Positions 20,111 to 58,499 of a stretch of 64,000 nt of DNA are shown here, in pieces (positions within the stretch are counted from its first letter, which is position 1; the number at the start of each line of letters is the position of its first letter). The notes beneath the pieces were generated by a model. That model was not told the origin of the DNA, did no database searches, and saw only the letters and a list, made by a program, of their open reading frames with translations. Position numbers and translations under genes: made by a program. The stretch comes from Geosiphon pyriformis uo1. Taxonomy: Eukaryota; Fungi; Glomeromycota. The DNA is taken from contig JAAOMT010000046.1 of NCBI GenBank assembly GCA_016748015.1, positions 372,001 through 436,000 of the forward strand, written 5' to 3'.

Positions 20111-21012
20111 TATTACTTATAGAAATTTATAAATTCTTAATAAAAATATAAAAGTAGCCAATTAGAGATAGATATAGTAAAAAAAAATTTCAGGATTTCT
20201 CTCAAGAAATTGCAGAATTTCAGAAATTTCAGGGTTTTCTTTAAAGAATTACAAAATTCCAGAAATTCTGGAATTTTTGGCTAAAAAAATTAAAAAAATC
20301 CAAGAAATTTTATATAATAGTAATTATGTATATATAACGAAAGTATTAGAAAAAAAAAAACAGAATTTAGTTTAAAAAAAATTAATTATCTAATATACAC
20401 AACCCATTAATTATTTCATACTTTTTTCTTTAAAAGATAGTTTTCTATAACTTAAAGTGAAATCAAATCACATATCAATAAAATATTAATTACTACTTGA
20501 ATCTATGTTATTACCACTTGATTAAAGAAATATTAACCACTTCCATTCTATCAACACTTTATGTTGATAGAATCTAATACTTAACTATATTAAACCAATA
20601 GCTCTTAATTATAACTATTAATGAAATACTAATTTCTTATTTTTTTTCATTTTCTTTTATTTTTTTCATTTTTTTCATTTTTATTTATTGTTTACTAATT
20701 GATTAAAAGATTAACATATACAGTTATTGACATCAAAAAAGACCAGTAAAAAATTCAGGAATAAGAATAGAAACTTAGAATTTGAGAATAACTTACCAGA
20801 AAAAACCAGCCATTAAGCTGAGAAAAAAATTCATAGAATATAACTTCAGAAAAGTACTAAAACAATTATTGAATCTCTGTTTATTATACAAAGAACTCAA
20901 CCAAACCTTTAAATTACAAAAATTTTCAGATATTACTAATAATTACTAGTCATTAAACACCAAGTTACAGGTTTGTTATATATACTAATACTCTAAATAA
21001 TTATTTGTAATA
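20111..21012 (+). repeat. Gypsy-0 3' LTR
   Basis: Direct repeat of 10385-11262, preceded by a decayed PPT. Confidence 0.85.
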
Positions 21013-26029: not shown

Positions 26030-28126
26030 TTAAATAGAATTTCCGAAGTTGAAACCCCCTTGCGGTTTGCTCATCTCGGTTTGAAAGGCGAACTGACCGG
26101 TGGACGTATCCATCTGCGGTGCTAGACTGGCATCCTCTTCTGTATCCTCTGAAAAATATTCATCAATAATATGATAAGCTTTCTTATAAATTTCCACATT
26201 ATCGTGAGTTTGAAGATTGTGGATTTTCTCCATGCCGGCAGCTTCTTCGATGTACAAAGAAAATTGGTTTATCCCATCAACCTTCTCCAACTCCCCAACT
26301 TTGAGAATATTTTCAATTCCATCAAGAGCCACCTGAATTATCTTGTTATCCATGCAAGTCAATAGATCACATAATGGTTTTATGCAACCTTGACTCACAA
26401 GATATCTAATCTGTTCAGGCTTGTTTATTCCCCCAGATGTTGCGTTAGATATTGCCCAACATGCCTCTTTGCGCGTCTTGAAATCAGCGTGGTGCAGGAT
26501 ATTAATAAGTGGGGGTATAATATTAGCGTCTATAACAGCCTGTATTTGAGCACAGTTCCCCGCGGTGATATTAGAGATGGTCCAGCATGCTTCTTTACGA
26601 AGGCCATCTTTTGGACTTGACAAAAGGCCTAAAAGAGCGTTGAGGACGCCACAGTTGATAATAACTTGTGTTTGCACATCATCACCGGTGACAATGTTTC
26701 CCACTGTGCGCAAGGCCGGAGTCTGAACTGATGTGGATGAATGCCTATCCAAAATTTGATATTATTACTCTATGTTATATTTTGTATTGAGTTTTTTGTA
26801 GAGAACATACATTAATAACTCAACCAAGCGACGGCAGACCCCAGATTCAATAACCGCCTGTATTTTTTCATTTGGGCCGTCAGACAAGTAGGAAAGTGCC
26901 CAGCAAGCATCTATAAGAACTTCATCATCAATTGAATAGATGAGCTTCGCAAGGACAGGAAGAGCTGGAGCGATCTATATAAAATTTAAATTAGTTGATG
27001 CACCACAATAAATTGGAATCTATGAAATATTTAATATTTTATTACCATATCCCATGCTGGTGGAGGATCTTTGCCTCGGCAGAAGTTTGATAATGTCCAT
27101 GTAGCATTTCGCAACATGGAGAGTTTGTGATGCTCATTCAAGATTGCTAGCAATGGACGAAGGGCACCGGCATGTAAAACATAATCCCTACAAGAAGGGC
27201 TATCTCCAGCAATGTTTCCAAGAGCCCATACTCCCTTTCATATTTGGCACGAGATGAATTTAAATTCGAATTATTATAATGAGGAAATAACGCAATGAAC
27301 CTTTCTTCCTGGAAGGACGAAAGTCTCTATATAATAGCTACCTGTTCTTTTACATCAGGAACTTGACTACTTAACAATTCAACGAATATAGGCACGGCAC
27401 CAGAGTCAATTACAACTTGTGTCTGTACCGAAGATCCTGAAGCAATATTTGTAAGAGCCCAGGCAGCCTCGAACTATAAAAAATATCAACAATTAAGAAG
27501 ATTTCTAGACAAAGTGGTTAGGGAATATTCGATTTCATTAATTGAAACTTGCCTGAACCAGAGAGTGAGGAGACTTCAAAAACTCAACAAACCGAGCTAC
27601 AACTCCACATTCAATGACTTGTTCGATTGGAGGATTTCTCTCTTTTGATAATAACTTCCTGAATCTTGTTGTCGCCTGTAACTGTTCTTCTAGATTGTCT
27701 GACAAGATCCCCTCTATCATTGCTGGGAGTTGTTCTTGTAACTAACCAAAATTGAAAGCTCGGTTACATAAAATTACTCGAAAGGATAACCAAATAGGTG
27801 GAAGTTTATATAATAGGACGTCAACAAAGTTTGGTAGGTGTAGGATGGGAGAGCTTTTCTTATAATATCTCTGCTCCGAAAGAAAGAGCTTTCGCTTGCG
27901 ACTTGAGAAAAAAACCAACCTGGGCGTTAATCGCAGCCACAATAGATTCATCGTCGGAGTCAGGCGAAGCTGGGATGTTAAAGTTTCGGCGCTTGGCAAG
28001 TGATTCTTCGCGATTTTTACGCCGGATCTCAATCTGTTGTTCTTCGCGGCGCCGTCGTAGTTCATCAGATTTTAGAATACCTTTTGATTTAAAGGCGTTT
28101 TTTCGATGTTCTGGAATTTTTTCCAT
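26030..28126 (-). CDS. SRP1: Importin subunit alpha (karyopherin alpha), 531 aa. Exons 28126-27920, 27741-27553, 27473-27342, 27234-27046, 26974-26811, 26744-26030
   Basis: IBB domain ([27 protein letters not shown]) and ARM repeats ([63 protein letters not shown]). The exons sum to 1596 nt in one open frame with 4 GT-AG introns and 1 GC-AG intron. Confidence 0.97.
27474..27552 (-). other. GC-AG intron (intron 2 of importin alpha, 79 nt)
   Basis: CAG|GCAAGT donor and TTTATAG|TTC acceptor restore the conserved VQ-FEAAW. Confidence 0.8.
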
Positions 28127-29135: not shown

Positions 29136-30154
29136 AAATAAAAAATACAATAAAATATATTTAATACTTTTTTTTATATTATTTATTTATTTATTTTTTC
29201 AAATTTTTTATTTTTAAATATTTATAAATAAAAAATTACTTGTTAATATTTATATATATATTTTTTCTTAATTTTTATTATTAAAATTAATTTAAAAAGC
29301 TATTTATTTGCTTTGTAATTTAATAATAAAAAAATGATTAAAAAATTTGTTATTAATTTTAAAAATTACTAAATAAAACATAAAATAACAGTAACAATAT
29401 TTTTATTATTATTTATTAACTTATTACTTAAATTTATAATATTATTTTGATTGTAAACAATATTTTTTTTGTTTTAAAATATTAATTAATACCTTAAATA
29501 ATTATTAATAATTAAATTAAATAATAATTAATTATTATTATTATTATTATTACTATTAATACAAAAAAACTTCTTGTCTCCTTAATTTTATGACCACAAT
29601 TAGAGCAAAAAGTAAAAAAGCTGTACCTGATATCTTTCTTAAGATATCTAATAAAATTTCAACCAAAGAAGCTCTTTCTGTTGTGGAAACAACTAGACAA
29701 AACGTTTTAGAAGTCTTCTCTTTATCTAATAATTATGAAAAACTGTCTTTGGTAGCTACTAAAGCAATTTTTTCATCTTTGGTTGGTTTTTCACCAGTTA
29801 AAGTTCCCTCAAAGAGACACACTTGGGTTAGTCTTAATGTTGTCTCTACTCCAACTAAGAGCCTAAAAGTTTTTAATAATAGATTTGTAAACAAGCTGGT
29901 TTTCCCTTTTTTTGCTTCAATATCTAGTGCTGCTAGCACTACCTTTTCAAAAAAAATGGTCAAAAAAACCAAAAGTTCAGAAAAGTAAAAGCAGTTATTT
30001 GCCTCTGCTATTGTTACACCGAACCTCTTTGTGGTTTCCAATGAAATCTTAGGTGAGATTTCTATAGTATTATCTGGCACATTATCCAAAATAGGCCAGA
30101 ATTAACCATTGGCTGTACTGCCTAATGTAGTATCTTTTGACAGATTGTTATCAG

Positions 30155-31166
30155 TGTTACCAATAGAATTTTAGCTATTAATTAGCATGAAATTACTCTT
30201 ATAATTCCTATAATTAATTAGTATATTAATATTATTTCAAATTATCATTTATTATTTAATCAATTATTACATATCACGATTCAATTAAAATAATCTAATT
30301 AGTATAACAGAAAGTAGGATGATCAAATTACACAATACTCTGAACTTTGTAACATTCTAAAATTCACTGAAATTTACAGAAATTCGCCGAAATTTATAAG
30401 AAATTTGCCGAAATTTACAGAAATTTGCTGAAATTATGAATAGTTCACCCAAATTAATCAATAGTTCAGCGAAATAACTTGTAGTTCATCAAAATGTATC
30501 TTTAGTTTGCCAAAATTTGAACAAAGAGAAAAAGTACAAGTTCATAGACTAGTACTACAACAAGTTGTATAAAAGAAGAGCTTTTCTCTTCAAGAAAATG
30601 TATCTTACTTTAGATTTTATCATTAGAACTATTTCTACACACAAAAAAAAATAAATATCAAATAATTCAAAAAACCAAATTTTTTAATTATTGCACTTGG
30701 AAAATCCCCAAAACCCAACTAACATTTTGAAATTAATTAGCTACCAATTTCAGTAAACTGTTAGTAACTTCAGACCTAGATAGAAAACGTTTCCCTTGAC
30801 AGAATTTAATTTCTTTTACTTTTCTTTTACTTTTATTTTATTTTTTTATTATAATCATTAAGGTAACCTACAGACGAGATTTCTGTAGAAGAGTTGACTT
30901 TCACAGCAAAGTAACTACACATTTTAGTGAGCTTCCAGACGAGCAATTCTTGGGAAAGAGTTGACATTTACTACAACATAACTACATAAAGTAACTGGCA
31001 TGAAATTGGCCATTCCACTTATAAGCCCAGCAAGTTCAAATTATAGAAGATAATTTGAAGATAAATTCAGTTATTGAAGGTTCAACTACTTCTAAAAAAA
31101 ATGTGAATTTGCAACCAACAGACATTTACAATATTCAAGAAAAGAGACCAAAAACCTTCAGTAACA
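30155..31166 (+). repeat. Gypsy-1 5' LTR (1012 bp)
   Basis: Direct repeat of 39107-40077, with 41 extra bp of GAAATT tandem repeat. Confidence 0.93.
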
Positions 31167-31168
31167 TT

Positions 31169-31180
31169 TGGTGCTCTCCC
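31169..31180 (+). promoter_or_regulatory. Primer binding site (TGGTGCTCTCCC)
   Basis: TGG (complement of tRNA CCA) 2 nt after the LTR end. The same TGGTGCT occurs at 11265 and 41097. The tRNA species is not identified. Confidence 0.8.
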
Positions 31181-31211
31181 ACAGAAATAACACAGCAACA
31201 ACAAATTCAAA

Positions 31212-33771
31212 GTGGTGACCACAACAGACACAGCAACTCTAGAGTATTACCAGTCAATTTACACCTACTGTAAGCAAAGATTCAATATTCCAGACGGAAT
31301 TGAAGTTGTCAAGAAATCAGTATACCAATACATTGAAAATCACATTAACAATTATCTTTTTGGAAACTACAACATTTCAGAAATTAGAAGCAACCTCTAC
31401 AATAATTTAGTACACTATTCACAATTGGGAACAGAAGACCTGAACAGTGAAACACTTGCTACTTATTTCCAAAAACTTAATTTTAATATTATTGAGTATT
31501 GTGAAAAAAAATACCCAGTACAGTCTAAATACTCTTTTGACTTTGAATCAGAAACAGAAACAAGCAACAAAGACAAACAAAGATTAAAGCAATACTCAAG
31601 AACCACTCCAAACACTCCAACACTACAAAAGACAACTGCCAAACACTTGCAAACACCTGAACAAAGAACCAATGTCAAATTACCACTTTCTATTACACCA
31701 TTTCCAATTTCACTTGTTTGATCACAAACACCAAGTTCACCACTTAACCATTTCTTCAGACCAGAAGATTTTCAGTCACCTAGAAATCCTACTCAACAAC
31801 AGAAACCAATATCAATAAGTGCCAATATTATTGATTACTTATAGGAAAACGAAAGTAATCACTCAAAAAGCTTGGAAAGTGAAGAAACTAAATCAGAACC
31901 AGAAGAAATTACAGAAAACAAAGAAGAAATGACAACTGTTTACATTGCAAAAATCCCAGAATTCACTGGTAAAGACAATGATACCAGTCCTCAAGAATGG
32001 CTTGACAAAGTTCAAAAAGCAGAAGATCTAAATGGTTGGATTGCAATAAGAATGCTCAAAGCAATTCCTTACTTTTTCCAAGGAACAGCAGAAGAATGAT
32101 TTGAAAACTTAGAAGAACCATTTGAAAACTGGCAAGCATTCAAAGATGCTTTTTTACAACAATTTACTGACAATAATACCTCTATCACTCTCAGAAACTG
32201 CTTTTACAATATTAAACAAGAAACATCTGAAACTGTTATGACCTATCTTGGAAGATTTAACAAACTTCTCAGATGAATCCAACAATTGGAAACCAATGAT
32301 TACTATTCTGATGCTCAAATTCTGGATTAGTTTATAGCAGGGTTAAAAGACAAACTGATTAAGAAAGTTTGTCCACATGCTCTAGCAGACTTAGCAACTG
32401 CTATTAAACATGCAAAGAGCTATAAAATGGCAATAGAAGAAGCAAATCACACCAAGCTTGTAAACTTTGCAATTGGAGAAACCAGCTCAGCAGCTGAAAA
32501 GAAGATAGACCAACTCACAAAAAAGGCTGAAAGCTACTTCACAAACCAACAACAATAGCAACAATAACCACAAAGATATTAACCCTCACAATGACACAAC
32601 CAAAACAATTTTGGATCACCATCCAACAACCAACCTTAAAATTGTCATTATTGTGGAATTTCAGGACACTGGAAACAAGATTGTAGAAAATTACAAAGAG
32701 ACCAACAAAACAGGAGTAATCAACATTACTCTTCACTACAACAATCCTATTACCAATCTCCACTACCAACCTATTATTTACCAAAACCACAAAATTAAAA
32801 CAGTTACTATCCACTAGCTCTACAACCAATGCAGCAACAATATCAGCAACCTTTACCAATTCAGCCATATCAGATACCACCCACTCAACAATATCAAGTA
32901 CCAGCAAGAAAATTGGTTTAACATAACCAATTTACACCCCAAAATCAATTGCAGAGTAACCACAACAGAATCAATTCAAATAACCAGTCAAAATTCTGGT
33001 CAGCAAAGACCCAATCACTATCACACTCAATCCAGTTATCTTACAATACCAGAGGAATCGGATTTTCAACAAACTGCACTTTTTGAAGGTGAAGTTGCAG
33101 CACCAAAATCAAACTCTTCCAACCACACCATTCCACCAGCTCAAATTGCCCAAAATGCCAATCTGTTAGATATATTTCCATTTGAATTTGAAGCAAATGA
33201 ATCACCATTTCTGCTTAGTAATGCAGCAGTCAATGAACAGAAAGCAATTACTGTTATGTACACAGAAGCTACAGTAGAAAAAAAACCTATTTGCTTAATC
33301 TTAGATAGTGAATTGGCTGGAAGTATCATCACTTACCAGCTGATACAACAACTCAAACGAAACATAGACAGACCAGCTCAAACAGTTATTATCACAGCTG
33401 ATAGTATGAAGAAGACTCCAGTAGGAAAAATTGATGATTTCTTCTTTTCAATTGATGGAATCACCATTCCAGTTAAAGTTCTTGTTATGGATGTACCCCA
33501 ATACCAAGCTCTAGTCAAAAATGATTGGCTTTTCAAGGCCAATGCAAACCTGAACTGGGAAACTCAAGAACTTAAAATCTCATACCAAGGACAATATACC
33601 ATAGTACCTGCAATCTGTGATACCTTTAACAAACGATCAGAAAAAGCCCCAGTATTTGAATTTGAAGAGGAGAAAGAAATGCCACTTACTAAAACCTACA
33701 TGGCTCTTGGATCAACATCCAATTGGGCTGAAGAAACAGAACAGGAGATTTTTGAAGAATCAAGAGGATAA
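31212..33771 (+). pseudogene. Gypsy-1 Gag (N-terminal extension, capsid, CCHC knuckle) + aspartic protease
   Basis: IAKIPEFTGKDNDTSPQEWL capsid motif; CHYCGISGHWKQDC knuckle at ~32643; CLILDS(G>E)..GSIIT...ALV.NDWL protease. Confidence 0.88.
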
Positions 33772-33819
33772 AAAAAAGTTAGATATTCTACACCAGAACC
33801 ACGGAAACAACCACCCTAT

Positions 33820-34440
33820 ATTCCACTCAAATGCAAAGATTACAACAAAAAACTTTTATCAATGAGAACATGTATTTTTCCAGAAGAGGAATATGAAACT
33901 TGTACCTGTTACTTTTGCAAAGCATGCCATAGAAAACGATTTGGATCTCCAAAAAGAAGTGAAAAATGGGACAACATACCTTGCCTTACATGTGAAGAAA
34001 TGCTATCAGAAGAATGCAATTGGATTGATGTAGCAATGAAAAAAGGAGTATGTGATCAAATCTGTCAATATGCTCTATCAATTTTGGAAAAAGTCAGAAG
34101 AGGAACACCATTTGATGCAACATACAACAGTGCTCTCAATAAACTTTACTACTACCCTCATGATGCTGAAATGATTTTTAACCTAGCAATGGCATTGATC
34201 AATAGAGCCACCCAAGAAGATGTCTGCCAAATGAAAGAAGCTGAATATATTGAGTATACTATAGAATTAGCTGGATTTGATTATGAAGATGAAGTAGAAA
34301 CCTACCACCAAATTGCAAGCCACACATATCCGACCAAAGAAGCTCAAATTCAACAATTAAAGCAAATGAACATTCAATTGTGTGAAGAATGTGTTATGCC
34401 TTGTGATGACCAATGGTGTTTAGAATGTTATGCTCTTAGC
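33820..34440 (+). pseudogene. Cys-rich domain of unknown function between protease and dUTPase
   Basis: YFCKAC, WDNIPCLTC, GVCDQICQY and CEECVMPCDDQWCLEC. Homologous in Gypsy-0 (~14250-14870) and Gypsy-2 (~44260-44890). Confidence 0.75.
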
Positions 34441-34559
34441 ATTCCTCTGCCAGATGAGAATAATGAAAAGGAAATCGAATTTGGAGTATCTGAACTAGTA
34501 GAAGAACTACCAACTATCTCCATCTATCTTTTTGAAAAGCAACCACCTCTACAACTTAA

Positions 34560-34976
34560 ATATTTTGACAACCATGGCCAAGGAATCAGACCAGAAAAAG
34601 CACACGAAATTGATGCTGGATATGACCTAAGATACTCAGGAAAAGATACTTTGGTTCTTCAACCAAAGTCCTTGACAAAAATCAATCTTAAAATTGCTCT
34701 TAAAATTCCACCAGAAGCATCAAATTGCCTCCAGATCATCATTGTCAAGCAAAAGAATCAATATTAGAGAAGGAGTTATAGATGCAGGATATATTGAAGA
34801 CATTACCATCATGTTACAGAATGAGACAGACAAACCATTCAAAATTGAACATGCTGAAAAAATTGCTCAAGCAATTTACTTACCCTTAATCAACATTTTG
34901 GGATTACAATCAGTAAACAACAGAGAACAATTGGAAAAAAGTGAAAGAGGAACTCAAGATTTTGGTTCAACTGGAC
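34560..34976 (+). pseudogene. dut: dUTPase domain (Gypsy-1)
   Basis: All five motifs are recognisable: DAGYDL, IASRSSL, GVIDAGY, EKIAQAI, ERGTQDFGSTG. Frameshift at ~34720. Confidence 0.92.
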
Positions 34977-35419
34977 AATTTACAGTTCCAGTAAACATAG
35001 CTCTTAATACACAAAATGAATCTCACCAGATTTTTCAACTTTCTCAGCCAATTACTATTTCACCTTTTGGAGAACATCACAAAATTTACACTTGCTCAAA
35101 ACCCACCACTACACAACAAATTTTTGAATCCAATAAACAAATCTGTTTGAAGCATGAAATCTCAATTCCAAACGTTTATATTCCCAAAGGAATGAAAAAA
35201 TTCCAAGTTACATTCTACAATCCCAATAATTACCCTATTGTCTTATTAAACAAACTAGAGATTGAAATCATACACAGCAATATTTTTTAAGATGAAAACC
35301 CTCAAATTGTCTCTAATTTCATCGAAATTGTAAGGCACATTCTACTTCCAAATCCAAATATCATTCTTACTACTGAAAACTACCATTTTTTGGAAGAAAA
35401 ACTCTCTCAAATCAACATG

Positions 35420-36823
35420 AGTCTCTTAGAACCTCAACAACAAAGACAATTGAAACAATTGATAGCTGAATTTGCAGATATATTTGCAAAAGACAACAAT
35501 GACTTGGGAAAAACGGACATTGTTCAACATTAGATCCATACAGGAGATGCTCCACCAAAACGTCAACAAGCTTATCGAATGCCACCTGCTAGCCACCAAT
35601 TTATCAGAGAAGAGGTCCAAAGAATGCTCAATAACGGATTGATTTAACCATTAAGAAGTCCTTGGGCCTTACCAGTAATTTTAGTTAAAAAGAAAAACAG
35701 AAAAATCAGATTCTGTGTTGATTATAGACAACTGAATAGTGTTACAATTGGAGATGCCTACTCTTTTCCAAAAATTGATGACATGTTAGATGCTCTAGGA
35801 AAAGCCAAGTTCTTCTCAACTTTAGACTTGGAAAGTGGATACTGGCAAGTCAAAATGAACCCAAAAGACCGACCCAAAACAGCATTTACCACCCAGAGAG
35901 AAAACTATAAGTTTAATGTTATGCCTTTTGAACTCTGCAATGTACCAGCAACATTTCAGCAACTCATAGATGTTGTATATGAAGGACTCTTGTGGCAATC
36001 AATAGTTGTCTATCTTGATGACACTGATGTATACTCACCAAGCTTTGAGACTCATCTCATTTACCTGCAAAAAGTTTTTCAATGATTATGGAAAACAGGA
36101 TTAAAGTTAAACATTGAGAAATGTCACTTTGGAAAAACAAGCTTGATCTTTCTTAAACACATAGTTAGTAAAGATGGAGTCAAACCAAATCCAGGAACAA
36201 TCAGTGCTGTCAAAAACTTTCAAACTCCCAGAAATACTACAAAACTAAGAAGATTTGTAGAATTAGCCTCTTACTATTGAAAATTCATAAAAGAATTTTC
36301 AGAAATTGCCAAACCACTCAATTATCTTATCAACAAAAACGTATCATACAAATGGACTAAAGAACAACAAAAAGCTTTTGAAACTCTCAAAACAAAATTG
36401 ACAACAGCCCCAGTTCTTGCTTACCCAGACTTCAACAAACAATTCCAATTAGCCACTGATGCTTCACACATAGTATTTGGTGCCATCTTATTACAATTGA
36501 ATGAAAATGGCCAGGAATAAGTTATTGCCTATGCCAGCAGAACTCTCAAGCCAACAGAACTCAAATATGGCTCAACTGAATTGGAAGCCACTGCAGTCAT
36601 CTGGGCTCTCAAACACTTTCAACAATACCTGAAAAATGGAAAAGAATTTGACATAATAACTGACAATATTGGCCTCAAATGGCTTAATAAAAAGAAAATT
36701 GAACAAAGTGACAAACAGTCTTGATGGAATGACTTCCTAGCAGACTACAGATACATTGTACATCACAAACCAGGAAAACTACACACCAATGTTGATAGCC
36801 TCTCAAGAATGAGACAATATTAA
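35420..36823 (+). pseudogene. Reverse transcriptase + RNase H (Gypsy-1)
   Basis: SPWA.PV, RFCVDYRQLN, LDLESGYWQ, KTAFTT, VVYLDD, LATDAS, IAYASRTL, ELEA.AVIWAL, HKPGKLHTNVDSLSR. Confidence 0.95.
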
Positions 36824-36890
36824 TACCAACATCAATACCAACAAAACACCAACAAACTTAATAGCAGAACAAATAACAAGATCAACAACA

Positions 36891-38274
36891 ATGAATCCAG
36901 AAAACTACAACAACATCAAAAACTATTTAGAGACTCTTACCATGCTGGAAAATTGGTCTCCAAGTGAAAAACATCGATTACAACACCAATCCAAACAATA
37001 TTTTATACACCATAACAAAATATATTACAAAAATTGTAAAAACCCAAACCAACTACTCAGATTAGTACAGGAAAATGAAAAAGAAACAATTCTATACAAC
37101 ATGCACACAGATCTTTCTTCAGCACACTTGGGAAAAGATGGAACAATTCAAAGAACTCTTGAACATTATTTTTGGTCTCACATGCAAAAAAACATTTGAC
37201 AATATGTAGAATCTTGTGATAGTTGTCAAAAAAGAGGAGGAATTCACTCCATGGAACCTTTAAATCCAATCAAAGTTGGACAACCTTTTAACAGAGTTGG
37301 AATTGATTTAGTCGGACCATTACTTATCACAACCCAAGAAAATTGTTATATTGCAGTTGCAGTGGATTATCTTACCAAATGGCCTGAAGCTAGAGCTATC
37401 CAAAGAGCAGATGCAAAATCAGTAGCAAATTTCATCTATGAAGACATTATCTGTAAACATGGATGCCCAATTGAACTCTTATCTGATCAAGAAACACATT
37501 TTGTGAACAACTTGATACAAGAAATTTGTGAACAGTTCAATGTCAAAAAACCTCTATCATTACCTTATCACCCTCAAACAAATGGATTTGTAGAATGTTT
37601 CAATAGAACATTGTGTGAATCTTTAGCCAAAGTTTCAACAGACTTTGAACAGGAATGGGATATTTTTATTCCATTAGTATTACTAGCATACAGAATGCTA
37701 AAACAAAATACTATGAAACACACACTATTTGATCTTATTTATGGAAGGACAGCAACATTACCAATTAATTTCACAGTAGAAACATACTCAGTGCAACCAA
37801 TTAATGAAGAAAACTTTCAAGAAACACTTCAAAGAAGAGCCTACACTCTTCTTAGTACACTGGAAGGAAAAAAAAAATAGCAGTAATTCATATTGAACAT
37901 TCCCAAGCTCAACAAAAAGAAAGACATGACAACAAATTACCACCTATTACCAGCAAATTTAAAGTTGGAAATAAAGTTCTCTTACACAGAACTAAGACTG
38001 AAAAACAATAGAGTGGGAAATTTGAAAACAAATGAGATGGACCATTTTATATTCACGAAATTCTAGGCAATGGATCATACAAGTAAGACTTGATAACAAA
38101 ATACTACCAAAAGTTGCACATAAAGACAGATTGAAACACTATCATTCCAGAAACAATCCTGAACCATTAATTCCACAAATTGGTACACATTTTCCTTTAA
38201 TTAATCCTAAAGATATTCCCCGAAATTTAGAACCAATAATTATAATAGAACAACAACCAAACTTGAATACTTAA
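36891..38274 (+). pseudogene. Integrase (HHCC, DDE core, GPF module; no chromodomain visible)
   Basis: MH...HLG, SCDSCQK, VGIDLVGPL, VDYLTKWPEARAI, LLSDQ.THF, PYHPQTNG.VE.FNRTL, DGPFYIHEILGNGSYK. Confidence 0.93.
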
Positions 38275-38419
38275 ATTTTACAATAATTCTCTAATAAAAA
38301 CACAAAAACAAAAAAAGTAAATAAATTACAAAAACACCCAAACCCAAAAACAAATAAAAACCTCATATCCCAAAAATAATTTTCTTTATTTTCTCTTTTC
38401 ATAATTAGTCAATTTTATT

Positions 38420-39100
38420 ATGATTATTCCCCGAAATATTCAACAAATATCCCAAAAGTTAATGTTAGTCTTGAAAACACTTCCTGACTTATCCATAATG
38501 ATTAATGGAAGTCAAATTAATTACATTTAGAAAGAAACCACAGCCTCAGTAGCAAATCATTCACAGAACTATCACTTCTATAGAAGAAAAACAAGAAGTC
38601 ACTCTGAAAATAGATTACCAAGACTTTTGAAGTAAGCACTAGAAGAAAATCTTTTAATTGCCCTTATTGACATTCCACCAAATGCTACAATGCAACAAAA
38701 ACTTCTACTACTTCTCAATGAACAAAACAATGAACACACCCCTATCTATAAATACTTTCACATTGGAAAGACACTTTAGGAACGAAAAATGGAACTTGAA
38801 GCAACAAATCTCACTCCTAAAGCTATACAAAAACAAATCCACAATGAATTAAAACAGCAGCTGGACCAACAAACACTTGCTACAAACTTAGAGCAGCTTT
38901 TAGACTCTATGATTTGTTTAATACTTGTGAAAATGTTCTACAAAATCCAATACTACAACCAATGAAAGTCTAATACATTGGCAAACTCACAGAACTGAAA
39001 TTTCAACAATTTTCAGACCAGATTACTTCAATTATTTTGGATCACTATCTCAATATTACAGATAGTGCTTGGACTTCAACAGAGCTCAGTCTTGAGAAGG
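38420..39100 (+). pseudogene. Extra 3' ORF (ORF3) of unknown function, Gypsy-1
   Basis: MIIPRNIQQISQKLMLVLKTLPDLSIMINGSQINY aligns with the equivalent region of Gypsy-0 (~19452) and Gypsy-2 (47987). Confidence 0.6.
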
Positions 39101-39106
39101 AGATTA

Positions 39107-40077
39107 TGTTACCAGTAGAATTTTAGCTATTAATTAGCATGAAATTACCCTTATAATTCCTATAATTAATTAGTATATTAATATCATTTCAAATTATCAT
39201 TTATTATTTAATCAATTATCACATATCATGATTCAATTAAAATAATCTAATTAGTATAACAGAAAGTAGGATGATCAAATTACACAATACTCTGAACTTT
39301 GTAACATTCTAAAATTCACTGAAATTTACAGAAATTTGCCGAAATTATGAATAGTTCACCCAAATTAATCAATAGTTCAGCAAAATAACTTGTAGTTCAT
39401 CAAAATGTATCTTTAGTTTACCAAAATTTGAGCAAAAAGAAAAAGTGCAAGTTCATAGACTAGTACTACAACAAGTTGTATAAAAGAAGAGCTTTTCTCT
39501 TCAAGAAAATGTATCTTACTTTAGATTTTATTACTAGAACCATTCCTACACACAAAAAAAAATAAATATCAAATAATTCGAAAAACCAAATTTTTTAATT
39601 ATTGCACTTGGAAAATCCCCAAAACCCAACTAACATTTTGAAATTAATTAGCTACCAATTTCAGTAAACTGTTAGTAACTCCAGGCCTGGATAGAAAACG
39701 TTTCCCTTGACAAAATTCAATTTCTTTTACTTTTTTTTTACTTTTTTTTTATTTTCTTATTATAATTATTAGAATAGCCTACAGACGAGATTCCTGTAGA
39801 AGAGTTGACTTTTACAGCAAAGTAACTACACATTTTAGTAAGCTTCCAGATAAGCAATTCCTGGAAAAGAGTTGATGTTTACTACAACATAACTACATAA
39901 AGTAACTGGTATGGAATTGGCCATTTTACTTATAAGCCCAGCAAGTTCAAATTATAGAAGATAATTTGAAAATAAATTCAGTTTTTGGAGATTTAACTAC
40001 TTCTAAAAAAAACGTGAATTTGCAACCAACAGACATTTACAATATTTAAGAAAAGAGACCAAAAACCTTTGGTAACA
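39107..40077 (+). repeat. Gypsy-1 3' LTR (971 bp)
   Basis: Preceded by PPT GAGAAGGAGATTA (39094-39106). Confidence 0.93.
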
Positions 40078-40218
40078 CCAGTTTTAGAAGCAAAACAATT
40101 ACCTCTTGTGGTGTTACCTGTTCTTGAAAACTGGGCTAACCAAATGAAAACTGAATTATCTTCTCTTCTGGTTTTTGGTGCTGCCACTGGTAATGCTTGA
40201 GAAACTATTACTAATTGC

Positions 40219-41094
40219 TGTTACTCATAAAGAAAACAGATATAGAAAAATAGGAGACAATAGAAAAATAGTAGTTAGCATGTGAGCACATTGTTCAGCA
40301 ATGTGGAGCAATGTCAGAAAGTATGGCACATTGCTTAGCAATGTGGAGCAATATCAAAAATCATGGCATATCGCTCAGCAATGTAAAGCAATGTCAAGAA
40401 AATACAGCACATTGCTTAGCAATGTGAGCATTGCTTGAGAAATTATAGCACATCATTTGGGAATGTGAGCAATTTCATAAAACTCAAATTATGTATATAT
40501 AATGGTAGCATTAGAAGTAGAAAAGACAGACTTCTTAGTTTAGATTTGATCTAAGCAACCTTCTATTCACAAATATCAATAAATAATTATTCACTATCTT
40601 AATCCACTCTCCACTATCAACACTTCATGTTGATAGTAAGTGATACTTAACTACATGAGAACAATAGCTCTTGATTACAGCTATTGATGGGATACTAACT
40701 TGTAATTGCTTTCATTTATTTTTTTATTTTTTTATTTTATTTTCTTTGTTTTGTCATTTCATTGGTTTTACTAACTGATTAAAAATTAAGTGCTGAATTA
40801 TTGACATCAAGAATAGCCTGGTAAAAGACCCCAAAAGAAGGATATAGGAATTAAGAATTTAAGGATAGCTTACCAGAAGGGCATTTCTGCCAAGATTACT
40901 GGCCACCATGCTGAGAAAAAAATTCGATGGAATTGCAATTCCAGGAGGCTATGGAAAAGACAACACTTGAATCTCTGTCCATTATACAAAAGATTTCACA
41001 ATAAAACCTTCAAATATCGACACCAGAATACCAACCCAGCACCAAGTTACAGATTTGTTATTTGACTTGAGATTTCAAATAATCATCTGTAATA
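40219..41094 (+). repeat. Gypsy-2 5' LTR with ~38-bp palindromic tandem repeats
   Basis: Direct repeat of 48635-49513. Confidence 0.92.
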
Positions 41095-41157
41095 TTTGGT
41101 GCTCCCTGTAAGATATAATCCTACAAAGAACCAGCACCAACTACACTCATCTCAAAA

Positions 41158-44100
41158 GTGGCAGAATCAGAAAGTATAGAAGCAAACCATTTAGGATTTG
41201 CAAAATCTTTATTTCAACACTACTGTCAACACTTAAGATTAAACCAAAATCATATATTAGTGAAATCAGTCTTCAATTTCTACATCAATGAGAGAATTGC
41301 ATATTTGTTAGGAACACCAGTAAACACTGAATCAGCAAGAGAAACTTTTTATCATGAATTAATCCAAAACACCAGCCTACCAACAAATTATAATTTTGCA
41401 TCCATTATTACTGAAATTAATAAAGAAATTGAACATCACATACAACAAAAATATCCAATCACTTATGCTAGTAAAGGCAAAGGAAAATTACAAATACCAG
41501 CAGTAACACCAAAACAAATACAACCATCTACTTAGAAGAAAACCAGAGTTGAATCACCAACAAATCCATCATACTACTATATATCTGGAAGCACCATCAA
41601 CATCACATTAACAAGCACATCTATATTACATGTAACATCAACCTTTAAATAATTCCCATTTCAGAATAAACAAAGGAAAGAAGATCTTTTAGGACCATAT
41701 GGCATGTATTTTGAAGAATTTAAGTCCCAATTACCAATGCCATCAAGACTTCAATCTCCACCACCCCAACCAGATTTCGGAACCACGAGTCCCTGGGAAG
41801 TAATGAAATCGGAGAAAAAACAAAAAAAAGAGAAAGAAAAATCTGAAGATCAAGAATTTACTTACCAAAATCTGATCCCAGAGAACCCAAACATTGAAAC
41901 CTCGAATTTCCAGACTCAGCAAAATCTAAATTTAGAAAATCCGGAAATTGAAACTCCGAATTTTCAAATGCAGCCAAATTAGAACGACCAAAACCCCGAC
42001 TTAATTAATTAACAAAACTTATCTCCTGGAATCATCATTAATCAGCCATTAGCCAAACCCATATGACAGCCATTCCAACAACTGCTTCAACAAATTCATT
42101 AGCCATCTGTACCACAACAACAAATGGCATACACACCAATCACAAAGCTCAATAAATTCACTAGTGAAGAAGACAATGCCCAAGTCTGGCTAAATAATGT
42201 AGCTAAAGCAATTACAGCCAATAACTGGGATGATGCTAGAGCCATACAAACAATTCCCTACTTTCTTTAAGACACTGCCAATGCATAGTACCAAAGCCTT
42301 GCCATCAAACCCCAAAATTTTAATGAATTTAAAACCGAATTCTTGAGGTACTTTAGTAACAATAATAGGATCAACAAGTTAGCCAACATCTTCACCACAA
42401 TCAAACAAGAAGAAACTGAAGCAGTTACTACTTACTTGGGATGGTTCTACAGGAACTTATGCCAAATTTAAGTGATCCAAGCTGACTATTTTACAGTGCC
42501 ACAAATTTTAAACCAGTTCATCTGTGGGTTGTACAGTAGCATCCTCTAATGTGTACGCCCAATGCACCCACAAACTCTCTAGGATGCAGTAACCAATACA
42601 CGAGATTTTAAAGCAGCTAAACTAGAAGCCAATTATGCTCAAGCTATAAACCTGGTCATGAATGGATTATCTGAATTGGATTCCAAATTGAAACAATTCA
42701 GTGATTCAATTAATCAGAAATTGGAAGAATACTTAGTTGACAATTGCACAATATATTAATTACTACAATGATGCAATAATTCTGAAAACATGGATTGTTT
42801 TCAGAATCAGTCGCATTCAACATCCTTGACCAATCAACAGTGGCAGCAAGAAATACATATTTGCCACTATTGTGGTAGACAAGAACATTTGCAATTTGAA
42901 TGTCAAAAAAGGATAAGTGACCAGAGATCAGTTAATCAGTATTAAAACTCTGATTGCTGACTACAAACTCAGAATTATGTCAGTAATCAATCAAACCCAG
43001 CTTTATATCAACAAAATTATCTACTTATGATACAGTTGATATATCAAACACCAATGATGCAGCAATTATATTCACCTCCAGTCTATCAGCCTTCAGCAGC
43101 AATTTATCAACCACAGTCCCAACCCAATTATCAGCTGCAGTCTCAGATAAATTATCTGCCTCAACAACATCAAAAACTGCCACAGAACTTACCTCAAAAC
43201 AGAACTCAAAGACCAAGATTAACACAGCAAAGCTGGAGATTATCGATGGTAGTCCATTAACTGATCCCCAGTTCCATAGCACAACCATCAGGATCTCAAC
43301 CATAGAATTCAGGCACCAGGTATGCCCAAAACCCGAATTTTCAGAACTATTTAAGTTTCCTGGTTACCCCAGAAGATGCCCCACCCAATAATCTAGAAAC
43401 CAACCAAAAACAATCACTCACCAACAACATATCTCCAGCCACCGTCACCAACAATAAATCACTAGCAGTGATTTTTTCATTTGAACTTGAAGAAACTACA
43501 CCAGTTCCATTATTCAGTAGAGTCACTTTTGACACCAAACCAATCACCGTTATGTACACTGATGCCAAAGTCGATGGCCACTCCATCAAACTAATCCTAG
43601 ATAGTGGATTAGCTGGCAGCATTATTACAAAGCAACTCATAGACCAATTAGGTCGCCAAGTTGATTGCGCTGCCAGCACCAGAATCATAACCACCAATAA
43701 AGCAACCAAAACTCCCATTGGTGAGATCAATGACTTTTCTATAAAAGTCAACAGCATCATTGTACCAATCAAAGTATTAGTCATGAAAGCCACCCAATAC
43801 CAAACACTCATTGGTAATGATTGACTATCTAAAACCAACACATCACTTGATTGGAATATGCAGGAGCTTCAAATCAGCCAGAACAAACAACACACATGTG
43901 TACCAGCCATGTGTGGCTACTTTATGATTACCAACTTGACAGCACCACTCATAGAGTTCGAAGAAAAAAAAAAAAACCTACCTGGGAAGCTTATTAAGTA
44001 TCCTGGGCTGATGAAGAACACAATGAGCTGCTACCAGTACCTTTGTGAAACGACAATAACAGGAAAAAAAAGAAAAGAGAAGAACTTATCTAAAACACTG

Positions 44101-47100
44101 ACCAAAACTGGGAAACCCATAATGATCAGGACAAATTATCAACAACCTAGGAATGGGAAAAGGATAAAATAAAAGAAAAAGGGAAAGAAGAAAATTCCAT
44201 ATCAACCCCTATTCACTCTACATATACATACACAACACCACAATTAAGCTATCATTGTCCAAAACTCATATGTGTTAATTGCAACAAGAATTGTTGTTAA
44301 TGGGTGCGTGTTGTGGCAATGATGAGAAATACTCAACAACAACCAAATTCTATTGCTGTGTGTGCATCATAGAATGCTTTGGATGTTCAAAACAAAAAGA
44401 GAAATGGGACAATGAATCATGCTTGGCTTGTAGTGAAACTCTTCTTGATGAAGGAATGTGGAATGACATTCCTGGGTGAAGAGAAATGTGCGACAAATTG
44501 TGTTAATACATGATTCTCATAAGCGACTGGATAAGAAAAAGAATGCCCATAGATGCTGCCTGGAGACAAGCCATTAAATGTCTAAACGGATGTCCACACA
44601 ACGATGATAAAATCTGGCAAATGGCACTTGCCAAAATCGAAGGAACAACCCCAAAAAAATAAAGACAATCAAAGATAATCCACCTAAACCCATAGAACTT
44701 GACTGGAACCCAAAACCAGTCATAAATCTACTAGATCCAGAACAATTCCACAAACACTACCAGGAATTAACACTCACTAGAGAGGAACAAGAACAAAGGT
44801 TAGAAAAAATTAATACTTGATTATGTGATCATTGTTTAATTCCCTGTAACTTCGAATATTGTAATAAGTGTGATTTCATTTACAATCCACCATCACACAT
44901 AATCTACATAATCCCAGAGAAAGAAAAACCAATCAGCAGCTGTGTATCAGAATTAGAATCAGTTTTCAATCCCAATTTAGACTCCGACAATAATGATAAT
45001 GAAAATAATGGTTCCAGCTCCATTCAAAATGGCAATAACAATAACAACAATTCCAATTGAGATTCAAACTCTAATTCAAATTATGAACAATATATCATGC
45101 TTTCTGACTTCACTAAGGAGCAGAAACTAAAATGGTTCAGCAATAATGATGAAAGTATTATGCCAGAATGTGCACATAATACTAATGCAGAGTTTAATCT
45201 AAGATATCCAGGGAAAGATTCCATCAAATTGGAACCATATTCGTGCACTTGCATCAATCTGAAAATAGCACTAGAAATTCCAGCAACAACAATGGTTCAA
45301 CTAGCATTCAGGAGTAGTTTAGTGAAAAAGGAAATTAACATTAGAAGAGAAATAATTGATGCAGAATACATAGGAAATATTATTGCTATGCTACAAAATA
45401 ATTTAGAAAAGGCATATACCATAGATCCTAACAAAAAGATAACACAGGCAATATTCCTATCTCTGGTGAAAATAGCTCAATTAGTGTCAGTGGAAAACAG
45501 GAAGGAATTAGGAATTACAGCTAGAGGAATATAGGGATTTGGATCAACAGATAGAATAGATATACCAGTCAATATGGCAGAGAAAAAAATTGTTGACAAA
45601 AAAAAAATTATCTCAACCCATCAAGCAATTTTCATTCTATCATATGACCAGTATATGTTAGCCATAAAAAGAAAAGTAAAGAATCAAGCTCAATTGTTTG
45701 AAACAGAAGCCACCATTTGTGAATCAGGAGAGATTGGACTTATCAATCTTTACATCTTAGCCAACAGCCCAAAAAATATTAAAATTTTCATCCACAACAC
45801 AACTGAAAACATCATTGAAATACTAAAAAAAACCATCATTGGATATTTAACCACTGAAGTTAAGAATCAACCACCAAACCACATTCCAGATTTTTCACAA
45901 CTGTGTAGATATGTAGACATCACATCACAAACCATCTACAGACAAAGTAAATGCTATCTGCTCCAACCAGAACAATTGGAACAGATAAACATGGGAAATC
46001 TAAACCCACTCCAACAGATGCAACTAAAGATGTTACTCAGCAACTTCAATAACATTTTTGCTAGCAAAAATAAATTTGGCCACACCAACATCATCCAGCA
46101 TCAAATTAAAACTAGAGATGCAATGCCAATTAAACAAAGAACATACAGAGTACCACCAGCTAGCCATGAGATCATTTATCAAGAAATCAATTGGATGCTT
46201 GACAATGGGCTAATTCAGCCATCAATGAGTCCATGGTCATCACCAATGGTACTAGTCTAGAAAAAAAATGGAAAAATTTGCTTTTGTGTAGATTACCAGA
46301 AATTGAATGAAGTAACCAAAAGAAACAACTACCCAACTCCAAAGATTCAAGAACTATTTGATGCTTTTGGAGAAAACAAATGGTTCTCGACACTGGATCT
46401 AGATAGTGACTACTGGCAAGTAGTCATGAATTCAGCTGACAAAGAAAAGACTGCATTTACAACAAGAGAAAGGAATTTTGAATTTGAAGTCATGTCATTT
46501 GGCTTGATGAACGCTCTAGCAACATTCCAATGGCTCATGGAAATTGTATATACTGGACTACTATGGAAATCAGTAGTTATATACTTAGACAACACCAATG
46601 TATTTTCAAAAACATTTGATGATTATCTGCATCACCTCCAGCAAATGTTTGAAAGACTAAGAAAAGTCAGATTGAAACTAAATGCAATAAAGTGTTTCTT
46701 TGGAAAAACTGAACTCAAGTTTTTGGGACATATTGTAAGCAAAGATGGTATCAAAATGGATCCAGATAAGATTGCAATAGTAAAGAACTTTCTAGTACCA
46801 ACAAACTTGCCAGAACTAAGGGCATTTTTGGGATTCACAGACTATTATTACCACTTCATCAAGAACTTTTCCAAACTAGCTCAGCCACTTTACTAGCTAC
46901 AAACTAAGAATATAAAGTATGAATGGACTGAAGCTCAACAAAAAGCATTTGACACATTGAAAAGAAAGCTTATTCAAGCTTCAGTGTTGATGTATCTAGA
47001 CCACAGCAAACCATTTATTATTACTATGGATGCATTAGGTCAAGCATTGAGAGTAGTACTATCACAGAAAAGACCAGATAGAAGAAAACATCCAGTAGCT

Positions 47101-47927
47101 TATGTCAGTAGAAGCTTAAGTCCAGCCAAAAAGAACTATTATCAAATCAAGGAACTCACTTTGTAAACAGAACACTGGCAGAATTAAGTTAAAGATTTGG
47201 AATTAAAAGACCATTATCATTGCCATATCATCCACAAACCAATAAACTAGTTGAAAAATTCAATAGAACATTGTGTGAAGCAATCGCTAAAATCAGTCAA
47301 GAAAACCAAGACAAATGGGATTTGTTCATATCATCAGTATTATTTGCTTATCGGACAATAAAGCAAGATACCACACAAGCAACACCATTTGAACTAGTAT
47401 ACAGTAGAACAGCAACATTACCAGTTGAGATAAAGGTCAATACATATCCAACTGAACCAATAACAGAAGATAATTTTCAAGAAACATTGTTGAAAAGAAC
47501 ATATAACTTAATGAAAACACTAGAAAACAGATGACAAAAAGCAGCTGACAACATACAAAAGTAACAAGAGAAACAAAAAGAGAGACATGATAACCAACTA
47601 CCAAACAAACCAGTTGAATTCAAGATTGGAGACAAAGTACTTCTACATCATACTAAAGCGGAAAAACAATAAAGTAGAAAATTTGATTCCAAATGGGATG
47701 GACCATTTCACATTAAAAAAATTCTTGGAAATGGAGCTTACAAATTAAGATGAAACAACAAAATCTTAGCCAAAGCAGCACATGGTGATTGACTAAAACA
47801 ATATTACCAGATAGCATTATCATCTACTAATAACATTCCACAACTAGAAGTACAAAGAATACTAGTTCAACCAGATGAAATTCCACGAGATCTGAAACCA
47901 ATCATAGTTATTGAACTAAACACATAA
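41158..47927 (+). pseudogene. Gypsy-2 gag-pol (Gag, PR, Cys-rich, dUTPase, RT, truncated RH/IN)
   Basis: ORF fragments at 41158, 41704, 43027, 43468, 43858, 45097, 45574, 46303 and 46957 all lie in one reading frame. Confidence 0.88.
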
Positions 47928-47986
47928 AATCAAACAATCAGAGAGTATATAAAGACACAGTATATGCGATAAAAGCAATTAAGAAA

Positions 47987-48634
47987 ATAGAAATACCAGA
48001 TCACATTCACACTATAGCTCAACAACTGTTCCAGGCCTTAAGTCAACAACAGTTAGACATGAAAATTATCATTAACAACCAAACAATTTGCTATCAAAAC
48101 ACTAAAAAAAAGACAAAGAACACACCATATCAGTGGGTACCAAAGAATAATAAAAACTGGTCAGATAACATAATAGAAAAAGTAAAAAACATGTTTGAGA
48201 AAATACCTATTATAGCACCAACAAAAGAACTTATAAAAGAAAATTGGAGCAATGAACAGAACAACTTCTAATATCATATTATTACTACCAGTTAGGTCGA
48301 AAGTTGAATATTCAGGAGTTATATATTGACAAATCTAAGAGAATATTCAACCAAGACATAATACAACAAATTGAAGAATTTATCAGAAAGAAAATGAATT
48401 CAATACTACATGTTAGAACAATGTACCAACTACACAACATATTTCGAAACTATCCAGAAATACTGTTACATTCTGACATGGAAACCATAACCATTAACCA
48501 ATAGGGAAAAATGAATAATACACAAGTGGAAGACGTGAAAAACAGAGTCAAACAAACAATACTTGAAAAAAAAGTATTAGAATTAATTCAAAACAAAAAT
48601 TCAATGAAGCTCAATATTAAAAAGAAGGAGATAA
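47987..48634 (+). pseudogene. Extra 3' ORF (ORF3), Gypsy-2, preceded by GTATATAAA (47945-47953)
   Basis: (M>I)EIPDHIHTIAQQLFQALSQQQLDMKIIINNQTICYQN is in frame with ORF 48059..48271, continues as 48304..48504 and runs up to the PPT. Confidence 0.65.
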
Positions 48635-49513
48635 TGTTACTCATAGAAAAAAAACAGATATAGAAAAATAGGAGACTAATAGGAAAATAGTAGTTAGCAT
48701 GTGAGCACATTGTTCAGCAATGTGGAGCAATATCAGAAAGTATAGCACATTGTTTAGCAATGTGGAGCAATATTAGAAATCATAGCACATCACTCAGCAA
48801 TGTGGAGCAATGTCAAGAAAATACAGCACATTGTTTAGCAATGTGAGTATTGCTTGAAAAATTATAGCACATCACTTGGGAATGTGAACAATTTTGTAGA
48901 ACCCAAATTATGTATATATAGTGGTAGCATTAGAAATAGAAAAGACAGATCTCTCAGTTTAGATTTGATCTAAGCAACCTTCCATTTACAAATATCAATA
49001 AATAATTATTCATCATCTTAATCTACTCTCCACTATCAACACTTCATGTTGATAGTAAGTGATACTTAATCACATAAAAACAATAGCTCTTGATCATAAC
49101 TATTGACAGGATACTAACTTGCAATTGCTTTCATTTATTTCTTTATTTTTATTTTTTATTTTCTTTGTTTTGTTATTTTATTGGTTTTACTAACTGATTA
49201 AAAATTAAGTGCTGAGTTATTAACGTCAAGGATAGTCTGGTAAAAGACCCCAAAGGAAGGGTATAAGAATTTAGAATTTAAGAATAGCTTACCAGAAGGG
49301 TATTTCTGTCAAGATTACCAGCCACTATGCTGAGAAAAAAATTCAATGGAATTGCGATTCTGGAAGGCTATGGAAAAGACAATACTTAAATCTTTGTTTA
49401 TTATACAAAGGACTCCACAACAAAACCTTCAGATATTGACACCAGAATACCAACCCAGCACCAAGTTATGGATTTGTTATTTGACTTGAGACCTCAAATA
49501 ATCATCTGTAACA
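48635..49513 (+). repeat. Gypsy-2 3' LTR
   Basis: TGTTAC...GTAACA. Confidence 0.92.
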
Positions 49514-58367: not shown

Positions 58368-58499
58368 GATGAAAAGGTTATTAGTTAAAGAAATGTTAAT
58401 ATAAATTTAACAGGAAAAAATAAAAAAACTTCTTTTTTAGAAAATGTGCTCTTTAAAGATTATTTGGAAGTAAGAAAGAAAGAAGTTTTTTTTTTTTAA

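Follow-up and report, generated by a model that had tools for sequence, protein, structure and literature searches.

In the textbook long terminal repeat (LTR) retroelement the integrase (IN) enters the particle within the Gag-Pol polyprotein. We describe here element B, at positions 30155-40077 of a 64,000-nucleotide stretch of the Geosiphon pyriformis contig JAAOMT010000046.1 (the window), which is a real Ty3/Gypsy (Metaviridae) LTR retrotransposon, decayed and dead. It shares with Ty3/Gypsy elements the TG...CA LTRs, the tRNA primer site, the polypurine tract, the order Gag-protease (PR)-reverse transcriptase (RT)-RNase H (RH)-IN and the Ty3-type capsid, RNase H and integrase Pfam families, but differs from them in that its integrase lies outside Pol. 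The surprising part is this stand-alone integrase, together with a coupled third open reading frame (ORF3) and an RNA motif found in relatives, rather than the dUTPase of the element or any likeness to retroviruses. Described fungal Gypsy elements have either a single Gag-Pol ORF or one ORF each for Gag and Pol (PMC2864245), and surveys of them recognize chromoviruses and the Ylt1-like and SN_1006 clades, with one or two ORFs (PMC2864245; PMC3248453), the latter two clades being listed from asco- and basidiomycetes (PMC2864245).

Among fungal Gypsy elements a dUTPase is carried by PosPlaTy3-5 of Postia, by elements of Phanerochaete and by Tmt1 of Tuber, and in PosPlaTy3-5 it lies between PR and RT, as in B (PMC2864245). 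The dUTPase tree of that paper comprises chromodomain-containing elements, with no split integrase described in its accessible text; in contrast, B has no chromodomain and possesses a Cys-rich block and ORF3. Similar in composition are the bdelloid rotifer elements Juno, Vesta and TelKA, which have a dUTPase between PR and RT, an ORF3 and no chromodomain, with Juno showing an extra zinc knuckle ahead of RT (PMC5408684). Thus, the combination of dUTPase, zinc motif, ORF3 and missing chromodomain was already known. However, the rotifer elements keep the integrase in pol, and their ORF3s encode env, GDSL, DEDDy or membrane proteins (PMC5408684), whereas the ORF3 of the B lineage matches no Pfam family. 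Ginger1 DNA transposons resemble this lineage in a lone Gypsy-type integrase with H2C2, core and C-terminal module, in TGTNR ends and in a 4-bp target-site duplication (TSD), and their source lineage has been left open (PMC2836005). Two stand-alone integrases among our top matches, P0271 and P0272, have tails that by eye resemble the Ulp1 protease and recall Ginger1 transposases. Ginger1 elements differ in having terminal inverted repeats and no RT, and a Ginger1 identity is ruled out by the direct LTRs and by the RT upstream of the integrase in the window and in 46 metagenomic loci. Troyka is likewise a distinct Gypsy-like LTR lineage, but has CG...CG ends, a 3-bp TSD, an animal distribution and mostly a single Gag-Pol that includes the integrase (PMC12440569); such ends and such a TSD are both absent in B, and Troyka membership was rejected. 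We found no Gypsy lineage with a separate integrase gene in the open literature, a search outside which Repbase, GyDB, Dfam and subscription papers lie, and the layout is absent from the accessible portions of 10.1101/2021.03.30.436303 and 10.64898/2026.05.21.726589.

A separate integrase gene in element B and its relatives

In element B (all features on the plus strand) a conserved stop at 36821-36823 closes Gag-Pol after RNase H, and is followed by an A/C-rich spacer of 67 nt (36824-36890; 4% G, no ATG) and by an integrase gene with its own ATG (36891-38274), which encodes the H2C2, core and SH3-like modules, terminates shortly past the last of these and has no chromodomain. Two frameshifts and stops in this gene are attributed to decay. 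The heavily decayed copy A (10385-21012, plus strand) has its Pol stop at 17339-17341 and its integrase ATG at 17373, with a stop-to-ATG distance of 31 nt. In both copies the Pol stop lies five codons past the last RNase H motif, and the integrase frame is +1 relative to Pol, behind the stop and spacer. In a third copy, C (40219-49513, plus strand), a deletion joined at about 47139 has removed the end of RNase H together with the first half of the integrase, so that the junction is readable in A and B only. At the contig level, we used a narrow alignment to 36700-37000 in place of a whole-element alignment, and among the 1,577 contigs of run X1 so aligned the stop shows no variant at or above 8% and no listed indel. 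Contig depth drops more than tenfold across the B spacer, where other subfamilies end loosely, and no other part is as poorly conserved among copies. Among 99 RT-RH homologs, the five best terminate 2-15 residues past the last RNase H motif, while distant homologs that have the motif mostly continue beyond it. The integrase of B is therefore not the C-terminal Pol domain that is usual in Ty3/Gypsy elements; since RT-RH nests among Gypsy-type rows, its separation is a variant inside Ty3/Gypsy.

A search of 1.84 billion representative proteins with the B integrase recovered many stand-alone integrases. In 27 such rows, hand-picked from 150 for short length or an N-terminal match, the first Met occupies the same column in at least 90%. 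A profile search limited to proteins of 108-793 aa yielded 2,359, and the 120 of these that were listed are 392-453 aa long, the species-named ones coming from Rhizophagus irregularis (5) and R. clarus (1). A further stand-alone integrase is found in Paraglomus brasilianum, and the top three clusters for the integrase P0280 are mainly from Mucoromycota (392-451 aa). Two short members of another cluster carry an archaeal metagenome-bin label, which is taken as mis-binning.

We then turn to the genomic context of these proteins in the best 80 of 577 metagenome loci retrieved with stand-alone integrases (given below as numbers with the prefix L). Forty-six of them contain both the end of RNase H and the start of the integrase; the remaining 34 are cut or have a long tail that runs off the contig. 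In all 46 a stop is followed by or overlaps a separate integrase ATG. The offset of the integrase frame is +1, 0 and -1 in 23, 12 and 11 loci, respectively, and the stop-to-ATG spacing ranges from -20 to +943 nt: start and stop overlap in 16 (-1, -4, -8, -11, -14, -20), 23 have spacers of 2-110 nt and seven have longer ones, some of which are probably damaged tails. The spacers of up to 110 nt are ATG-free in 20 of 23 cases, and a purine occupies position -3 in 56 of 65 integrase starts. Of the 30 non-overlapping loci, 22 have a further stop, in the integrase frame, after the Pol stop; thus, in these 22 of the 46 neither a single frameshift nor readthrough can join Pol to integrase. In intact relatives the order is LTR, primer site, Gag-PR-RT-RH, stop, integrase, ORF3 and LTR, with L013 having unbroken ORFs of 1,612, 424 and 143 aa. 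Together, these observations make it very likely that the integrase is encoded by a gene of its own. The original prediction had listed a "+1 integrase"; the +1 frame as such is true of A and B, but a frameshift design is very unlikely given the stop preceding or overlapping the start in 46 of 46 relatives and the offsets in all three frames.

In a first RT-RH tree of 126 rows, one branch (SH-aLRT 92) unites copy C with the 27 split rows, none of which falls elsewhere, and with seven proteins that stop after RNase H; it also includes one of 58 fused proteins. Three more rows that end after RNase H fall outside it and are probably fragments. In a careful tree of 58 rows, with near-duplicates removed, the split branch has support of 98/93, and all 200 bootstrap trees (100%) place it on one side of a branch. 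It extends to Rhizophagus and Paraglomus, and two plant rows, P0137 and P0180, judged chromoviral from motifs only, lie outside it. The group of B is apparently a distinct, non-chromoviral, undescribed lineage of fungal Gypsy elements. Its lineage-wide characters are the separately encoded integrase, in any frame, and a conserved ORF3. A distinct, poorly described lineage had indeed been proposed for B, and the non-chromoviral fungal branch bears this out, but the dUTPase and Cys-rich block, which were part of that proposal, do not define it.

Two observations concern other parts of Pol in these relatives. Five of 18 (L007, L008, L041, L044 and L070) carry one in-frame stop in the PR-RT interval, in each case TGA with CTA after it. 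This is a known stop-readthrough context and suggests that readthrough downstream of the protease may be programmed in one sub-branch; the three PR-RT stops of a sixth locus, L033, stem from damage. One sub-branch (L013:4348-5163, L028, L039, L053, L055, L069 and L070:4945-6702) carries a tail of 240-590 aa past RNase H that has no Pfam match.

Routes to the integrase protein

With the integrase encoded separately across the lineage, other means of translating, dosing and packaging it are needed. The explanation that we consider probable is a separate integrase gene, placed after the Gag-PR-RT-RH stop and before a small conserved ORF3, and likely translated by restart of ribosomes. The genomic RNA would be polycistronic and, possibly aided by a hairpin in one set of relatives, ribosomes finishing Gag-Pol would re-initiate at an integrase AUG that overlaps the stop or lies close to it. 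The dose of integrase would thereby be uncoupled from that of Gag-Pol, and the free integrase would enter the particle through binding to RNA or Gag, not as part of a polyprotein; foamy-virus Pol is packaged by RNA or Gag binding. The Geosiphon branch would in addition have gained, between PR and RT, a dUTPase and a Cys-rich block that likely binds zinc. Restart, which we favour on balance as the route to integrase, is suggested by the start/stop overlaps, the short ATG-free spacers (20/23) and the purine at -3 (56/65). Stop-start coupling has precedents in SART1 (UAAUG), LINE-1 ORF2 and fungal victoriviruses, which similarly have a stop and start that overlap or lie close together and an enzyme gene downstream, but are non-LTR elements or double-stranded RNA viruses with no LTR integrase.

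Several points weigh against this reading. Ordinary re-initiation is known to fail after long ORFs, the B spacer has no recognisable helper element, and the hairpin of the relatives is absent from the window. The metagenome loci are biased towards split elements because they were fished with stand-alone integrases, and in 24 of the 46 a fusion by shift or readthrough is formally possible, though unneeded. The integrase frame of A and B is open from 8 nt ahead of the Pol stop, so that a +1 shift at the stop is formally possible there. The whole-element contig alignment failed to list the known dUTPase frameshift of B, and the absence of an indel row in aligned contigs is therefore weak evidence. 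Finally, the split group was delimited from the first tree before the careful tree was made, and the fused protein inside the split branch, P0356, is a true short-linker fusion, which means that the split can revert or is not universal.

The main rival to restart is expression of integrase and ORF3 from a subgenomic RNA of their own, spliced or made from an internal promoter, in the way of env-like ORF3s or the Pol of foamy viruses. We regard this as rather unlikely, but it accommodates the spacers of several hundred bases, a few of which contain many ATGs, the T-rich composition of several spacers and the good start context; moreover, ORF3s of LTR elements typically come from spliced messages (PMC5408684). 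Against it, there is no space for non-coding sequence at the 16 of 46 junctions where the start overlaps the Pol stop, inspection of 65 upstream stretches by eye showed no conserved acceptor AG ahead of the ATG, and the short ATG-free spacers fit scanning from the stop. Internal initiation, with the hairpin or an A-rich unstructured spacer recruiting ribosomes independently of Pol translation, would draw on the hairpin, which covaries, has invariant loop letters and in 22 loci lies no more than about 35 nt from the ATG, and on the A/C-rich, G-poor (4%) B spacer. It appears improbable, as the motif is missing by pattern in 58 of 80 loci (many of them cut short upstream), overlapping junctions require no such element and the hairpin could instead be a binding site for integrase or Gag. 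We give equally little credence to a programmed +1 frameshift that would fuse integrase to RT-RH, in the families of Geosiphon at least: both A and B are +1 with a frame open from 8 nt before the stop, and +1 is the commonest offset in relatives (23/46), but the three-frame offsets, the closed frames (22/46), the conserved Met, the different lengths (31 nt in A and 67 nt in B) and low conservation of the spacers and the lack of any Ty1/Ty3-type shift heptamer speak against it. That the break merely reflects decay, with a mutational stop and an indel in dead copies full of stops (transitions make up 95-96% of the LTR mismatches, and CpG stands at 0.11 of expectation), is exceedingly improbable given the same stop position in A, B and family contigs, and is refuted by intact relatives with unbroken ORFs such as L013.

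The many natural junctions, with their overlaps, short spacers and hairpin, provide material for studying re-initiation after a long ORF in fungi. The split lineage also bears on the origin of the integrase-only Ginger1 transposons, and it explains a source of annotation noise, since stand-alone 'DDE integrase' genes of Rhizophagus and many 'hypothetical proteins' of Geosiphon are pieces of such elements. The broadest interpretation, which we hold to be doubtful as a whole, is of an undescribed genus-level Metaviridae lineage that would be the predominant LTR element in arbuscular-mycorrhizal fungi and their relatives, and would combine a tricistronic RNA (Gag-Pol without integrase, integrase and ORF3), stop-restart, a new RNA element of ~38 nt, an integrase packaged in trans and an accessory protein of new fold, thereby representing the missing step from Gypsy to Ginger1.

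ORF3, the hairpin and the Geosiphon additions

An extra 3' ORF had been predicted in B, and it proves to be real, belonging to a conserved family present after the integrase in 32 of the 80 loci, or 24 of the 37 with room for it, mostly as a protein of 138-266 aa. In 19 of the 32 its ATG lies between -59 and +41 nt from the integrase stop. The family gives no Pfam match in the 11 members scanned, no env match and no transmembrane stretch (top 19-residue hydropathy 1.53 over 32 members). Its predicted structure is all-alpha and soluble, with a predicted local distance difference test score (pLDDT) of 91; the best structural match has a Z of 5.2 (root-mean-square deviation 3.4, 69 residues aligned), and no Foldseek match was found in PDB or BFVD, which is not proof of a new fold. 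The lineage thus has no env-like third ORF of the retrovirus or errantivirus kind, and the "retrovirus-like complexity" originally ascribed to B was overstated. In B, the region 38420-39070 (bounds approximate) is likely a decayed member of the family: its 3' region provides the two best matches to the ORF3 profile in the whole window (38705-38836 and 38863-39027), which are colinear. Their scores of 11 and 6 bits are weak, however, the ORF3 of C is suggestive by eye only, and neither A nor C gives a significant profile match, all of which count against this assignment. Given the tight coupling of ORF3 behind the integrase gene, we tentatively raise the possibility that it is a soluble accessory factor working with integrase or Gag; an anti-silencing role is an alternative.

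Immediately upstream of the integrase ATG, within about 35 nt, 22 loci, some of them near-duplicates, carry a motif of ~38 nt (for example, L012:295-332, L013:5193-5230, L028:4464-4501 and L036:3763-3800, with 18 more loci). It can be folded as a hairpin with a CA-NN-GTGA loop, 5' GTGNAAGC-NN-AAG, whose loop letters are invariant. On 19 distinct copies, 99.3% of cells are paired and six of eight pairs show changes on both sides; none of 500 shuffles reached as high a covariation, and slid controls were 27-56% paired. These statistics are biased in favour of the structure, as it was read from these same sequences. The motif was found nowhere else in the loci and is absent from the window. Both sub-branches contain it, and most of its bearers with a known Pol end belong to the sub-branch with the long Pol tail. 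Ten loci, eight of them with the hairpin, gave no Rfam match at E up to 1. By eye, none of the iron-responsive element (IRE), K-loop, hammerhead, twister, selenocysteine insertion sequence (SECIS) or T-loop motifs is a full fit, the 5' TGNAA resembling a T-loop. The hairpin is a candidate site for integrase packaging.

In contrast to the separate integrase and ORF3, the dUTPase and the large Cys-rich block, seen only in Geosiphon, cannot define the lineage as had been supposed. A query with the Cys-rich stretch retrieved 407 proteins, and all 120 among those listed are hypothetical proteins of Geosiphon pyriformis (56-89% identical), while the B dUTPase, Cys-rich block and Gag N-terminal region have no tblastn match in the 80 related loci, nor does a dUTPase Pfam match appear in the long relatives scanned. 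The trimeric-type dUTPase of B (34552-34975; PF00692, E 2e-13) is mutated, and its reading is broken by a frameshift near 34710-34720. The homolog P0001 has a full-length dUTPase, its residues 294-432 aligning with solved dUTPases (E 2e-15) through the C-terminal motif, with motifs 1-5 present, and the Geosiphon enzyme would likely limit uracil in the cDNA. The Cys/His-rich block (33772-34551) keeps about 20 Cys/His columns across 35 homologs, losses being mainly to Tyr, as decay predicts; it likely binds zinc, probably at several sites. Structure prediction had been proposed as a check on the accessory domains: it was confident for ORF3, but poor for this block (pLDDT 51, best VIA Z 5.5, no Foldseek match at E <=0.001), where it is uninformative, and neither domain gave a fold match. 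By eye, a smaller C-x-C...C-x2-C motif is seen in this PR-RT slot in seven of 18 relatives, as a candidate counterpart of the Geosiphon block. A stretch of ~170 aa at 34976-35500, between the dUTPase and RT and common to A, B and C, may, judged by eye, be a further, degenerate beta domain of dUTPase type.

Anatomy of element B and its surroundings

The 5' LTR of B (30155-31166, TGTTAC...GTAACA) and its 3' LTR (39107-40077) align with 920 matches and 51 mismatches. The primer-binding site (31169-31184) starts with TGGTGCT, the same 5' bases as in relatives, and a purine-rich polypurine tract (39094-39103) precedes the 3' LTR. Gag (31191-32950) has a long N-terminal region of no known family and is interrupted by stops; it contains the capsid (32064-32348; PF03732, E 8e-13) and a CCHC knuckle (32640-32690; PF00098, E 0.006, under the family cut-off). 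The aspartic protease (33232-33576) is decayed, with a Pfam E of 0.001 in B against 3e-8 in copy C, and RT and RNase H occupy 35684-36748 by Pfam. Copy C and intact relatives keep Gag and PR in-frame, and the Gag/PR frame change in B is therefore damage. The predicted order Gag-PR-Cys-rich-dUTPase-RT-RH is confirmed, with Pfam matches to capsid, knuckle, protease, dUTPase, RT, RNase H and integrase H2C2, core and SH3-like end, and the Gypsy-type enzymes stand in the order PR-RT-RH-IN. The Pfam scan also bears out the absence of a chromodomain, no Chromo match being found in B or in the integrases of four scanned relatives.

B lies in a LINE fragment, flanked by TCAG (30151-30154) and CCAG (40078-40081), and two empty-site LINE paralogs hold this 4-mer once, indicating that exactly 4 bases were duplicated. 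The LTRs, their ends, the primer site, the polypurine tract and the 4-bp TSD, most of which had been predicted, thus stand for B. At k=4 the flanks match in 3/4 positions for A, B and a solo LTR at 4439-5206 and in 4/4 for an insert at 18048-18689, as opposed to at most 2 matches for the same four insertions at k=3, 5 or 6. The TSD is hence 4 bp in four insertions, as against the 5 bp typical of chromoviruses. The solo LTR (minus strand) belongs to the A/C family and its 4-bp TSD has one C/T mismatch; the 642-bp insert lies in the integrase of A, has TGTTA...TAACA ends and a perfect TSD, and is likely a solo LTR of another family.

Three diverged elements of common layout had been reported in the window. 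The layout holds in B, and C has the same accessory domains, but C has neither the junction nor a TSD (its flanks, TTGC/GTGA, match at 2/4) and the ends of A are decayed (AATTAC...GTAATA). Moreover, there are two families and not three, as A groups with C, and B apart, in the RT-RH tree. B and C sit 141 bp apart in the 5' part of one LINE family (29532-30154, 40078-40218, 49514-49997 and 1-986), and the two flanks of C are from two different LINE copies, pointing to a recombinant, a local duplication or an assembly join.

The window has a GC content of 27% and is dense in decayed transposons. In one DNA run 72,829 contigs align to B, which therefore belongs to a large family; LTR elements make up 41.2% of the Geosiphon genome (PMC11952901). 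Transitions account for 49 of 51 LTR mismatches in B, 79 of 82 in C and 136 of 142 in A; they occur in every C context, mostly at CpG, and the Geosiphon copies are now undergoing erasure by C-to-T decay. Scans of viral contigs gave 1, 0 and 2 weak loci only, nothing informative. Probably the only host gene in the window is a locus at 26033-26761 (minus strand), in an island of 40% GC, that encodes armadillo repeats with an importin-alpha-type last repeat (PF00514, PF16186). A decayed non-LTR (LINE-like) element at 52143-58406 (minus strand) has a first ORF of ~300 aa without a Pfam family, and 5' pieces related to it are dispersed across the window. Long, very AT-rich inverted self-matches at 5800-8233 and 58496-62175 (about 65-72% identity) are decayed palindromes or remnants of inverted elements.

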